From the sequence record OR996328: a stretch of 42,805 nt of DNA; one strand, given 5' to 3'. Under the pieces are notes generated by a model. That model did no database searches, was not told where the DNA came from, and saw only the letters and a list, made by a program, of their open reading frames with translations. Shown here one piece after another: positions 29,454-40,169 of this stretch (within the stretch, counting starts at the first letter, position 1; the number at the start of each line of letters is the position of its first letter). The translations under genes and the position numbers were made by a program. Source of the stretch: Escherichia phage Shy.

Positions 29454-30263
29454 TTAGCGCGGTTGGCCCCAAGCCGGTTGGCCGCCGCCGTTGCCTTGGT
29501 TCTGGTTCCAGCCGCCGCCGTTGCCTTGCTGCTGGCCTTGGTTGCCCTGCTGGTTGCCTTGCCAGCCGCCGCCCTGCTGGTTGCCCTGCTGGCCGTTGTT
29601 GCCGTTGTTCTGGCCCCAACCCGGATTACCGCCGCCGTTGTTCTGGCCTTGGTTCTGGTTGTTGCCGCCGTTGTTATCCGGCATCGGAACGTTGTTCGCG
29701 ACCTGCGATTGACCGCCCCAACCGGCGTTGTTACCGCCGTTGTTTTGCTGCTGGTTCTGGCCGCCGTTCTGTTGCTGGTTGCCCCACGAACCGCCGTTGT
29801 TACCGGCTTGGCCGCCGTTGTTCTGCGCGGCTTGACCGTTGCCGTTGGCGTGGCCGGGTTCGTTACCGTTGATATCGAACACGCGTTTTACGTCGGTGTA
29901 CTTGTTCGGGTTCGGTTCTTTCTGCAACCCGACTTCGACCATAAACGGGATGTTGTGCAACTGTTGCGAATCTTGCACTTGGAACACGCCGGTAACGTGG
30001 CACAAAGCCGACAACTGTTTGTGCGCGATTTCGACGGTTTGCGGGTTGGTATGGTACAGGTTCAGGCGGTAAGCGCCGACCGCGCCTTTGTTCGGGCCGT
30101 CGATAACCTGCAAGTCGAATTGCAGATAACCGGAATCGTTATCCTTGGTCGGCTTTACTTCCGACTTGATAGCGATAACCGGATGCTTGCCGATAGGCAA
30201 ACCGCCGACGCCTTGGGTCGGGTCTACGTTACGCGCGTCGAACGCTTGCATCAATTGAGCCAT
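29454..30263 (-). CDS. ssDNA-binding-like protein (DUF669-type position) with ~140-aa G/N/Q/W-rich disordered tail
   Basis: Start moved to the ATG at 30263 (SD AAGGTAG). The ~125-aa N-terminal folded part lies next to the Sak4-like ATPase, as in many phage recombination modules. The tail resembles the bacterial SSB linker (GGWGQ...) but ends ...QPAWGQPR with no acidic tip. Confidence 0.6.
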   Translation of the reverse strand: MAQLMQAFDARNVDPTQGVGGLPIGKHPVIAIKSEVKPTKDNDSGYLQFDLQVIDGPNKGAVGAYRLNLYHTNPQTVEIAHKQLSALCHVTGVFQVQDSQQLHNIPFMVEVGLQKEPNPNKYTDVKRVFDINGNEPGHANGNGQAAQNNGGQAGNNGGSWGNQQQNGGQNQQQNNGGNNAGWGGQSQVANNVPMPDNNGGNNQNQGQNNGGGNPGWGQNNGNNGQQGNQQGGGWQGNQQGNQGQQQGNGGGWNQNQGNGGGQPAWGQPR

Positions 30264-30319
30264 TTTGTTTCTACCTTTTCGAAAAGTTCCGACAATCAAA
30301 CCGTGTCGAATTCGGTTAT

Positions 30320-36805: not shown

Positions 36806-36997
36806 ATGGCCGACGAAGTGGATATGACCGACGCAAGAACCGAAATCGAAACGGCCGACGCAATCGCAGCGATTAGCGCGAAGGCGAAGGCAATACCGGC
36901 CGGGGTTCCCGGCGAATGCGACTTGTGCGGCGAATGGTCGGGCCGCCTTGTCAACGGCGCTTGCGCACCTTGCCGCGACCGCCACAATCTACCGTAA
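36806..36997 (+). CDS. small C4 zinc-ribbon protein (TraR/DksA-like?)
   Basis: 63 aa with CDLC...(11 aa)...CAPC. The spacing is shorter than the classical TraR C-x2-C-x17-C-x2-C, so family assignment is tentative. Confidence 0.5.
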   Translation: MADEVDMTDARTEIETADAIAAISAKAKAIPAGVPGECDLCGEWSGRLVNGACAPCRDRHNLP

Positions 36998-37607: not shown

Positions 37608-37810
37608 CGGTACAACGGCATAACGACCGCATCGCGAAAAACGGGTCGCATCTTGAATCGGCTAAAACGCTGAAACAAGCCCTTGACAACCTGAAAGCGG
37701 CCGGTTTAAAATCGGAACAGTTGGACGAACGCACCCATTCCATTTACGGTTGGACGTTCGGCAACGACGATAAGGGTTATTACTTTTATCGGAACTACAA
37801 CCAAGCATAG
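37604..37810 (+). CDS. hypothetical protein (68 aa)
   Basis: ATGA-coupled to the VRR-NUC gene. Confidence 0.5.
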   Translation: MTVQRHNDRIAKNGSHLESAKTLKQALDNLKAAGLKSEQLDERTHSIYGWTFGNDDKGYYFYRNYNQA

Positions 37811-37819
37811 GGGTTCAAA

Positions 37820-37987
37820 ATGAACATTCACGCCGAACGCATCGCCGACCAGAACTTGCGCACCTTTTCAGTGCCGCCGCGCAACCGCAAAGGCCCGTCG
37901 ATTGTCGAAACCGTTATCGCAATGGTTATCGGCTTCGGGGGTGTTGCATTCGTCGTTGCGTCGGCGTATAATCTGTTCATCGGATAA
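37820..37987 (+). CDS. small membrane protein (55 aa), absent from the ORF track
   Basis: MNIHAERIADQNLRTFSVPPRNRKGPSIVETVIAMVIGFGGVAFVVASAYNLFIG has one C-terminal TM segment. An AGGGG SD lies ~7 nt upstream. Confidence 0.4.
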   Translation: MNIHAERIADQNLRTFSVPPRNRKGPSIVETVIAMVIGFGGVAFVVASAYNLFIG

Positions 37988-38006
37988 CGAAACAGGAACC
38001 GCAATC

Positions 38007-38309
38007 ATGCCAGCATACGACGTAACCACTTCTTTCGAAATGACCGACGGCCGCATTCTTGAATGCACTTACGTTCTGTCGGTCACTCCCGCCCGTCTTT
38101 GGGGTGCGCCGGAAAACTGCTACCCGGAAGAATCCGAAGCATCGGAAGGCGTGTTTACCATTGACGGCGAAGAAGTCGATTACGACAACTTGCCGAAAGG
38201 GCTGGCGGCCATCGCGGATAAACTGGAACAGGCCGGGCCGGGCGAATTCGGATACAACGAATCGTTACGCGAACCGGATTACGAACCGGACTTTTACGAT
38301 TATGATTAA
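38007..38309 (+). CDS. highly acidic small protein (100 aa)
   Basis: Start moved to the ATG at 38007. 24 D/E against 5 K/R by hand count. The C-terminus is REPDYEPDFYDYD. Confidence 0.55.
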   Translation: MPAYDVTTSFEMTDGRILECTYVLSVTPARLWGAPENCYPEESEASEGVFTIDGEEVDYDNLPKGLAAIADKLEQAGPGEFGYNESLREPDYEPDFYDYD

Positions 38310-38529
38310 CTGTTTGCGATGCGAACTCATAAGGGCCAAGGCGAAAGCTACGGCCCTTTTGGCGTTGAAATGGACGCCGCAAGAAATCGCCGCGAAGCTG
38401 TCGGCCGACTATGGCGAAAGCTATTACGTCGGAATTGAAGCGAACGGCGAATGTTGGTGCAAGGGCATATTTCGGGCGTCCAAGCTGTCGCCTTATACGC
38501 CGCATCTTATTAAGGAGTTGACGAAATGA
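38302..38529 (+). CDS. hypothetical protein (75 aa)
   Basis: Start moved to the ATG at 38302, which overlaps the upstream stop (ATGATTAA). The track extension upstream lies inside the previous gene. Confidence 0.5.
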   Translation: MINCLRCELIRAKAKATALLALKWTPQEIAAKLSADYGESYYVGIEANGECWCKGIFRASKLSPYTPHLIKELTK

Positions 38530-38933
38530 ACAAGCAAGAATCGGCCGCACTGTTCGCCGCTATCAAGGAAAACCGCCGCAAGCTGGACGCGTGCCCGCGC
38601 CATCTGTTCGACGTTGGCCCGCCGCCGTATCAGTTAGGCCAAAAGGTAACTTGCGCAATCTGCGACGGTTACATGCCGGTTACGGACGCCGCACAATACG
38701 CACGCGGCTACATGGCCGCAGGTGGCAACCCGGACGACGTAATCAAGAACTTTTACGGGCCGGATTACTCACACGAAGCCGAAGCCGTAACGTGCCCGAA
38801 ATGCAAGGGCGTATGCGGCGTCGAAATCAACCCCGGCGATTGGTTCGATTGCGACTTCTGCGACGCGACCGGCAAGATTGACCGTCACGAAGCGTTGTTG
38901 TATCTGGACAACGAAAAGGAGTCGAAACGATGA
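38526..38933 (+). CDS. Cys-rich protein with DnaJ-like CxxCxG zinc-finger motifs
   Basis: 135 aa with CAICDG, CPKCKGVCG and CDFCDATGK. ATGA-coupled on both sides. Confidence 0.55.
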   Translation: MNKQESAALFAAIKENRRKLDACPRHLFDVGPPPYQLGQKVTCAICDGYMPVTDAAQYARGYMAAGGNPDDVIKNFYGPDYSHEAEAVTCPKCKGVCGVEINPGDWFDCDFCDATGKIDRHEALLYLDNEKESKR

Positions 38934-39600: not shown

Positions 39601-39958
39601 AATACTCGCAACAGATTTCGTAATGATTGCCAGCGAAGCAAGCCCAACCGGGCAAGCGTTCGTAATGGCAATCGAAAACGGGGTCGCAAGTCCTAACCCG
39701 GTTATCGCCGAATGCGCGGTCGCACCGGGTTACTACAACCTGTTGGCCGCTAGTCGCGTCATGTTCGGCGCGTTGAACGACCAAACGGTTTGGTTGCAAA
39801 AGCTGTTGGATATGTTGGACGCGCTAGGCCAGCCGGAAGAATCGGATTTGCGTAAGACGCTGGTATCAATGCAAAACGCGGCCATGCTGGCGCAACAGTG
39901 CGCGACGGACGGACTTAACAACGTCGCAACGACGATACTTCGAACCGGCCTTAAATAA
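39584..39958 (+). CDS. hypothetical protein (124 aa)
   Basis: Start moved from the TTG at 39578 to the ATG at 39584. It overlaps the previous ORF by 17 nt. Confidence 0.5.
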   Translation: MKTKAEILATDFVMIASEASPTGQAFVMAIENGVASPNPVIAECAVAPGYYNLLAASRVMFGALNDQTVWLQKLLDMLDALGQPEESDLRKTLVSMQNAAMLAQQCATDGLNNVATTILRTGLK

Positions 39959-39963
39959 AGGAG

Positions 39964-39971
39964 TGCCCACA
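39964..39971 (-). repeat. TGTGGGCA motif copy (minus strand)
   Basis: The plus strand reads AAGGAGTGCCCACAATG. The motif fills the spacer between the SD and the start codon of the 39972 gene. Confidence 0.9.
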
Positions 39972-40169
39972 ATGACCCGGAAACACGTAGCCTATTGCAT
40001 CGGAATCGCCGCCTTGGTTATACTCGCAGGCGTCGCCGGTAACAGCGATTACGAAGAAGCCAAGCGGGAAGCCGAAGCATATTGCGCTAACGTGCATTCG
40101 GGGTTGTGGCCGGATTACAACGGTACTTATGCCGAATACTGCAAAAATGGCGAATACAACGGAAAATAG
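39972..40169 (+). CDS. small membrane/secreted protein (65 aa)
   Basis: Start moved to the ATG at 39972 (SD AAAGGAG at 39956-39962). It has an N-terminal hydrophobic segment CIGIAALVILAGVAG. Confidence 0.5.
   Translation: MTRKHVAYCIGIAALVILAGVAGNSDYEEAKREAEAYCANVHSGLWPDYNGTYAEYCKNGEYNGK

Follow-up and report, generated by a model that had tools for sequence, protein, structure and literature searches.

A conserved, strongly acidic small protein of Escherichia phage Shy, a member of PHROG 14000, and its possible role as a decoy

A small gene of Escherichia phage Shy (record OR996328) was found to encode an exceptionally acidic protein, which is a member of a catalogued phage family (PHROG 14000) and whose sequence was already public as a hypothetical protein. 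The gene is a constrained, core-like gene of the Septimatrevirus/Lokivirus lineage. Our best guess, held with low confidence, is that its product serves as an acidic decoy for a surface with which a conserved protein of DNA metabolism binds nucleic acid or an acidic tail. The first-pass annotation had considered it a candidate DNA mimic or anti-restriction protein, with Ocr- and ArdA-type proteins as examples of such mimics. The broad, charge-based idea of a mimic or decoy is plausible, while the specific Ocr/ArdA-type reading is disfavored.

Results

Genome context

The window (the whole stretch of DNA that was analyzed, 42,805 nucleotides) was approximately 98% identical to Escherichia phage Halfdan and to the Halfdan 'Juelich variant'. 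Its 42.8 kb, set beside the 42,858 bp recorded for Halfdan, suggest a near-complete or whole phage genome. The recorded hosts were E. coli MG1655 for Halfdan and Pseudomonas taiwanensis for the near-identical Juelich variant; close gene relatives were all encountered in phages of Pseudomonas, Xanthomonas, Stenotrophomonas and Acinetobacter. The general layout of the genome and the features of the acidic gene are collected in Table 1. The acidic gene lies 5.4 kb into a rightward string of genes spanning primase to lysis genes, with the VRR-NUC nuclease 400 bp upstream and the dCMP deaminase 620 bp downstream. No RNA genes were uncovered when the window was scanned with Rfam and for tRNAs.

Table 1. 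Features of the acidic gene, of its product and of the surrounding window
Feature	Position	Strand	Remarks
Terminase and structural genes	to about 22.6 kb	+	
Replication-recombination module, leftward			polymerase, clamp, SF2 helicase, Cas4-type exonuclease, SSB-like protein, Sak4, MazG
Rightward arm			primase (32585), many small ORFs, VRR-NUC nuclease, acidic gene, dCMP deaminase, lysis cassette
Shine-Dalgarno-like AGGA	37994..37997	+	9 nt 5' of the ATG; read from sequence
CDS of the acidic protein	38007..38309	+	100 aa; Halfdan gp34 orthologue; PHROG 14000
Residues 1-27, N-terminal beta-hairpin	38007..38087	+	motif FE-x-x-DGR-x-L-x-C-x-Y; AlphaFold2 and family conservation
Residues 28-41, loop PARLWGAPENCYPE	38088..38129	+	counterpart in YuA gp49: PAKVSGPPEYCYPAE
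Residues 36-60, central acidic region	38112..38186	+	10 Asp/Glu, no Lys/Arg
Residues 62-75, LPKGL turn, then single predicted helix (AAIADKLEQ)	38190..38231	+	AlphaFold2 helix 66-74
Residues 89-100, predicted disordered acidic-aromatic tail EPDYEPDFYDYD	38271..38306	+	6 acidic, 4 aromatic, 0 basic
Downstream 75-aa gene, PHROG 8564	38302..38529	+	ATG overlaps the stop of the acidic gene by 8 nt

Several other products of the window deserve mention in their own right. Two genes downstream of the acidic gene, a 135-aa protein (38526-38933, +; PHROG 9844) displayed CxxC and CxxCxGxG-type motifs (CPKCKGVCG and CDFCDATG) resembling a DnaJ-type zinc finger, as well as a weak match to the Anti-TRAP Pfam model; it was conserved in phages 73, KL1 and Loki. 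A 63-aa DksA-like zinc-finger protein (36806-36997, +) shared 59% identity with the translation of a YuA phage segment (2198-2386) that falls between gp41 and gp42, a gap for which the annotation gives no CDS. The SSB-like protein (29454-30266, - strand) carried a long C-terminal region of low complexity, rich in Gln, Asn and Gly and with repeated GWG, and its conserved end (...PAWGQPR) lacked an acidic tip. The same Gln/Asn/Gly-rich region with GWG repeats, the same type of end (...PAWGQ(P)R) and the same lack of an acidic tip were found in the SSB-like proteins of phage 73, KL1 and Loki.

The acidic gene and its product

Translation of positions 38007-38309 (+) gave exactly the 100-residue protein that had been announced there, MPAYDVTTSFEMTDGRILECTYVLSVTPARLWGAPENCYPEESEASEGVFTIDGEEVDYDNLPKGLAAIADKLEQAGPGEFGYNESLREPDYEPDFYDYD, ending in ...REPDYEPDFYDYD. 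The earlier hand count of 24 Asp+Glu against five Lys+Arg was reproduced (10 D and 14 E; two K and three R), and its charge of about -19 was computed as -19.5 at pH 7, with a pI of 4.05, an Asp+Glu content of 24% and no histidine. The six frames of the whole window contain 127 ORFs with an ATG start and a length of 60 aa or more; of these, the protein ranked first in acidity, with a charge of -0.19 per residue versus -0.086 for the next ORF. Most of this charge was carried by residues 36-60 and by the last 12 residues, neither of which includes a basic residue (Table 1); the composition of the latter agrees with the aromatic-acidic C-terminus reported previously.

The start codon was considered credible because AGGA precedes it by nine nt and because every homologue aligned with the protein starts at the same Met. 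At the other end, the TAA (38307-38309) is overlapped by the ATG of the next gene (38302) within ATGATTAA. This next gene matched PHROG 8564, which carries no functional assignment in the database; it is annotated in the Halfdan Juelich variant and conserved in phage KL1. Upstream, a gap of 19 nt separates the acidic gene from a 55-aa ORF. The translational coupling suggested in the first-pass annotation was retained on the downstream side, where ATG and stop overlap.

The 55-aa ORF (37820-37987, +) displayed a hydrophobic C-terminal stretch, IVETVIAMVIGFGGVAFVVASAYNLFIG, which is probably a membrane segment, and PHROG and Pfam scans gave no match for it. The best sigma-70-like match of the right arm (37683-37712, +; TTGACA and TAAAAT separated by 18 nt, 11 of the 12 consensus positions matched) was located inside a 68-aa ORF, 300 bp 5' of the acidic gene. 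It was regarded as a putative internal promoter at most, being kept only in the near-identical Halfdan variant and found neither in the 84%-identical relative nor at the same place in phage 73.

Family membership and distribution

The protein matched the PHROG 14000 HMM with an E value of 6.2e-43, its residues 1-98 covering profile positions 1-100 of 101. This family, annotated as of unknown function, includes Halfdan gp34 (99% identical to the protein studied here and annotated as hypothetical), ORF045 of Pseudomonas phage 73 and homologues in Kakheti25 and DLP_2. Scanning Pfam, NCBIfam and PADLOC with the protein gave no match. By tblastn, homologues displaying 60-70% identity were found in 79 phage records, namely phages of Pseudomonas (73, Kakheti25, PaMx10 and others), Xanthomonas, Stenotrophomonas, Variovorax and Pseudoxanthomonas. 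When 1.84 billion representatives were searched with a profile, the family grew to 78 clusters at 50% identity, with proteins of 62-118 aa. Acidity was a property of the whole family: the net charge was negative in all 88 retrieved proteins (-3 to -25) and likewise in every one of the 78 clusters. The family consensus read FE..DGR.L.C.Y.....PG....P.E.....P.Y..DG.EV....LPKGL..IA..MY.

In Septimatrevirus and Lokivirus genomes the acidic gene was always located between a VRR-NUC/Vsr-like nuclease and the dCMP deaminase, and Acinetobacter phage Loki harbored a divergent member of 94 aa and net charge -21 at the syntenic place. No family member was found by HMM in Burkholderia phage KL1. Distant members were also encountered in unrelated phage contigs, which had no other gene in common with the window phage. 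One of these was situated about 4.4 kb downstream of genes for PTPS (QueD-like) and GTP cyclohydrolase I (contig positions 490-1589), and the presence of these two genes indicates that the corresponding phage probably makes 7-deazaguanine-modified DNA. A search for related loci with a family alignment retrieved similar phages only, and tblastn against 72,556 plasmids (E up to 0.1) gave no homologue.

A homologue in Pseudomonas phage vB_PaeS_SCH_Ab26 (NC_024381.1, 40043-40294) bears the label 'ORF46: endolysin', and the small neighboring ORF046 of phage 73 is also labeled endolysin in RefSeq. These labels look like annotation errors; family searches lent the acidic protein no support as a lysin. 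A literature search on Halfdan, 3PES/gp49, PF20788 and anti-defense in Septimatrevirus found no functional data.

A remote relative of known structure

The family profile weakly matched PDB entry 3PES ('uncharacterized protein gp49'), which was traced to gp49 of Pseudomonas phage YuA; other PDB sequence matches were dioxygenases at chance level only. YuA gp49 is the founder of Pfam family PF20788 (126 bits) and also belongs to PHROG 6858. According to the hmmsearch alignment to 3PES, the common segment consists of a strand and the loop PAxxSGPPExCYPxE. With hhalign, a probability of 94.8% was obtained against gp49 alone, and of 96% (E 4.4e-9, 33 columns) when the family alignment was compared with a PF20788 alignment of 43 proteins, a match spanning only one third of the acidic protein. 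Several bridging sequences matched both PHROG 14000 and PHROG 6858. The protein itself fell below the PF20788 gathering threshold of 27 bits and matched no Pfam family at E values up to 10. As judged from these profile comparisons, it would be a remote superfamily relative of PF20788 rather than a member of it.

Both groups consist of small phage proteins (about 80-100 aa) encoded in non-structural regions of small genes, and many PF20788 members share the acidic-aromatic type of ending (DDYYD, DEFY or DDWY). Unlike the PHROG 14000 family, whose mean net charge was -14.8 over the 106 proteins collected, PF20788 is only mildly acidic (mean -6.6). PHROG 6858 and PF20788 are annotated without function, 3PES is a structural-genomics entry, and no paper mentioning the PF20788/gp49 family was found.

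Predicted structure

An AlphaFold2 model built from 33 sequences (mean pLDDT 79.9) predicted a small folded protein, in which a beta-sheet is packed on one helix and followed by a flexible acidic-aromatic C-terminal tail. Its elements were a hairpin (strands 3-11 and 17-27), a loop, three short strands (42-57), the helix 66-74, a strand (84-88) and the disordered tail. Residues 1-30 reached a mean pLDDT of about 85-87 per block of ten, and residues 92-100 remained below 50. Within the loop, positions 33-38 displayed a column occupancy of 0.47-0.49, these six residues being missing in about half of the family. Acidic residues were found in 87%, 82%, 84% and 84% of 79 family members at positions E42, E44, E47 and D53, respectively; the turn that follows was conserved at L62 (60 of 79), P63 (74 of 79) and L66 (70 of 79).

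An earlier model (11 sequences, pLDDT 68) found nothing in the PDB with Foldseek, and structural matches in BFVD were uncharacterized phage proteins only, one of them from Acinetobacter phage IMEAB3. No solved DNA mimic and no Ocr-like fold appeared among the PDB matches listed for the present model. Such a mismatch of fold cannot refute mimicry, because mimics are diverse in fold (PMC3902945). A zinc or metal site formed by Cys20 and Cys38 was considered and rejected: Cys20 is replaced in one third of the family, Cys38 lies within the optional insert and the protein has no His.

Evolutionary constraint

Compared with an 84%-identical metagenomic relative, the gene displayed a dN/dS of 0.22, close to the median of its neighborhood, and the frame is under purifying selection. 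Of the 52 proteins of phage 73, only 36 were detectable in the window. ORF045 (67% identity over its full length) was more similar than any other full-length orthologue; the capsid protein reached 66%, TerL 59%, primase 56% and polymerase 47%. As far as these sequence comparisons go, a fixed syntenic position combined with conservation above that of capsid, terminase, primase and polymerase would be atypical of an anti-defense gene. A structural or regulatory role that does not involve nucleic-acid-binding proteins would fit such high conservation as well.

The C-terminal tail

Among close homologues, Y92, E93 and P94 were invariant. The last hexapeptide was acidic-aromatic and free of basic residues in 51 of 105 family members, compared with 17% of internal hexamers, and an aromatic residue occupied one of the last three positions in 71 of the 105. 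The corresponding hexapeptide was found in 30 of 117 PF20788 members, versus 12% of internal hexamers. In about half of the family the tail was missing or different, and YuA gp49 itself lacks it.

These tails recall those of E. coli SSB (DFDDDIPF) and T7 gp2.5, which are likewise short, disordered and Asp/Glu-rich with aromatics at or near the carboxyl end, a likeness that is compositional only. The C-terminal peptides of SSB and gp2.5 bind the OB fold in competition with ssDNA, and they also contact or recruit partner proteins (PMC3936761, PMC10359462). The acidic protein differs from SSB in having no OB fold and an EPDY-rich tail instead of DDDIPF, a DDDIPF-like consensus being absent from family tails; it ends in Tyr-Asp, whereas SSB and gp2.5 end in a terminal aromatic residue.

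A look-alike was found in phage KL1. KL1_0048 (39882-40154; 90 aa, net charge -11, PHROG 18992) is encoded in the same cluster of small genes, and its tail reads NNEPDYDYDEPY. It was rejected as a family member, with an hhalign probability of 0.2%; its similarity to gp49, confined to the C-terminal half of the latter, was weak (E 1e-3 in a single comparison).

Discussion

Possible functions

The protein displays neither catalytic motifs nor DNA-binding features; if it is a decoy, it most likely acts stoichiometrically. The conserved patch of E42, E44, E47 and D53 would, together with the tail, occupy a basic surface of a partner, one whose usual ligand is nucleic acid or an acidic tail, so that the decoy would be a case of nucleic-acid or SSB-tail mimicry in the broad sense. 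We infer the partner, its identity and the binding mode alike; the putative partner would be a conserved replication, recombination or repair protein of host or phage. Conservation of the protein across phages of Pseudomonas, Xanthomonas, Stenotrophomonas, Variovorax and Acinetobacter makes a conserved partner likelier than a strain-variable R-M system. Family-wide acidity, the recurrent tail, evolutionary constraint, DNA-metabolism genes as neighbors and the lack of an enzyme-like family match together give tentative support to a decoy. Against it speak the tail, which is missing or different in about half of the family, and the Tyr-Asp end. Distant members share no neighboring genes with the window phage, so no conserved genomic partner points to a target.

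There are precedents for such an activity. T7 gp5.9 and lambda Gam are small acidic inhibitors of RecBCD. Ugi, p56 and SAUGI are small acidic proteins that mimic nucleic acid and inhibit uracil-DNA glycosylase, and are thus likewise aimed at a highly conserved DNA-repair enzyme (PMC3902945). By analogy, targeting of the Ugi type would be in keeping with how well the protein is conserved between hosts, and with the fact that the phage encodes a dCMP deaminase. The acidic protein displayed no sequence similarity to any of these five inhibitors and no structural match to them among the PDB matches listed, and the comparison is one of analogy only.

As an Ocr/ArdA-type mimic of double-stranded DNA, the protein would probably form a dimer that resembles B-DNA and obstructs the groove in which type I R-M, BREX or similar defense enzymes bind DNA. 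Ocr and ArdA are also small, extremely acidic and encoded by phages or mobile elements (PMC3439906, PMC2731889), and size and charge bias are comparable, with 24 acidic and five basic residues in 100 aa versus 34 and six in the 116 aa of Ocr (PMC3439906); size and acid excess therefore place the protein within the range of DNA mimics. Acidity is moreover conserved throughout the family, and members occur among small ORFs in unrelated phage backgrounds, as accessory counter-defense genes often do. What defines a DNA mimic is that its surface charges are arranged as in DNA, on a body of suitable shape, and that it binds a DNA-binding protein; in sequence and fold such mimics differ so much that homology cannot exclude them (PMC3902945). 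This reading nevertheless appears improbable. The protein resembles Ocr and ArdA neither in sequence nor in fold, its predicted body being a compact beta-sheet with one helix instead of an elongated, DNA-shaped one. Pfam-A contains an Ocr model, and the Pfam-A and NCBIfam scans did not place the protein in the Ocr family; PADLOC models were equally silent. Membership in ArdA found no Pfam match, no structural match and no homologue on the 72,556 plasmids. An arms-race gene is expected to be patchy and fast-evolving, whereas this one is deeply conserved, keeps a fixed synteny and encodes the best-conserved full-length protein in the comparison with phage 73. Nor is it situated at a genome end that enters first; it lies 5.4 kb inside an operon, which runs on into the lysis genes.

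Core-like conservation exceeding that of the replication enzymes themselves, and a location among DNA-metabolism genes, would also suit a non-inhibitory accessory subunit of the phage replication-recombination machinery, with the tail as an SSB-like recruitment peptide. SSB and T7 gp2.5 tails mediate replisome contacts (PMC10359462, PMC3936761), and the subunit might cooperate with the SSB-like protein of the phage, whose end carries no acidic tip in the window phage, nor in phage 73, KL1 or Loki. Such a role is rather unlikely: the gene lies outside the leftward module harboring polymerase, clamp, helicase, exonuclease, SSB and Sak4, the Kilunavirus KL1 possesses the same replication genes without an HMM-detectable family member, and distant homologues sit in phages with different neighboring genes. 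Somewhat less doubtful, though still on the unlikely side, is a function that has nothing to do with nucleic-acid-binding partners, in which acidity would be incidental or serve another purpose. The protein might then, for example, regulate transcription or metabolism of the host, bind cations, or assist assembly or solubility. This would agree with PHROG 14000, PHROG 6858, PF20788 and the structural-genomics entry 3PES all standing without functional annotation, with the absence of the family from the literature searched, and with the mean charge of PF20788, which implies that extreme charge is not required for the putative shared fold. The conserved acidic columns and the recurrent tail argue, on the other hand, that the charge is selected, and with only two Cys, not conserved family-wide, and no His, a classical metal site is unlikely.

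A wider extension of the decoy idea can be conceived. PHROG 14000 and PF20788 may belong, together with KL1_0048 and similar look-alikes, to one widespread class of small phage proteins, in which a compact acidic domain would present an acidic-aromatic C-terminal peptide mimicking the SSB tail or ssDNA and so jam or redirect a conserved OB-fold or SSB-interacting protein of host or phage. We regard this as speculative and quite improbable; if true, it would represent a previously unrecognized route by which phages take over DNA replication, recombination or repair.

Significance

At present the protein is one among many small acidic phage proteins deposited as hypothetical. Its family is nevertheless harbored by about 80 cultured phages of Pseudomonas, Xanthomonas, Stenotrophomonas and Acinetobacter, several of which are considered for therapy, and by many metagenomic phages. 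Being kept more faithfully than capsid and replication enzymes, the protein is probably important for infection, and its unusual conservation and recurrent tail make it a good and cheap experimental target. Should it turn out to act as a DNA mimic against restriction, that small class would gain a new fold; should it inhibit a conserved host DNA-metabolism enzyme, it would offer a new tool or an antibacterial lead. A partner, if found, would give a function to PHROG 14000, to its relative PF20788 and to the orphan structure 3PES.
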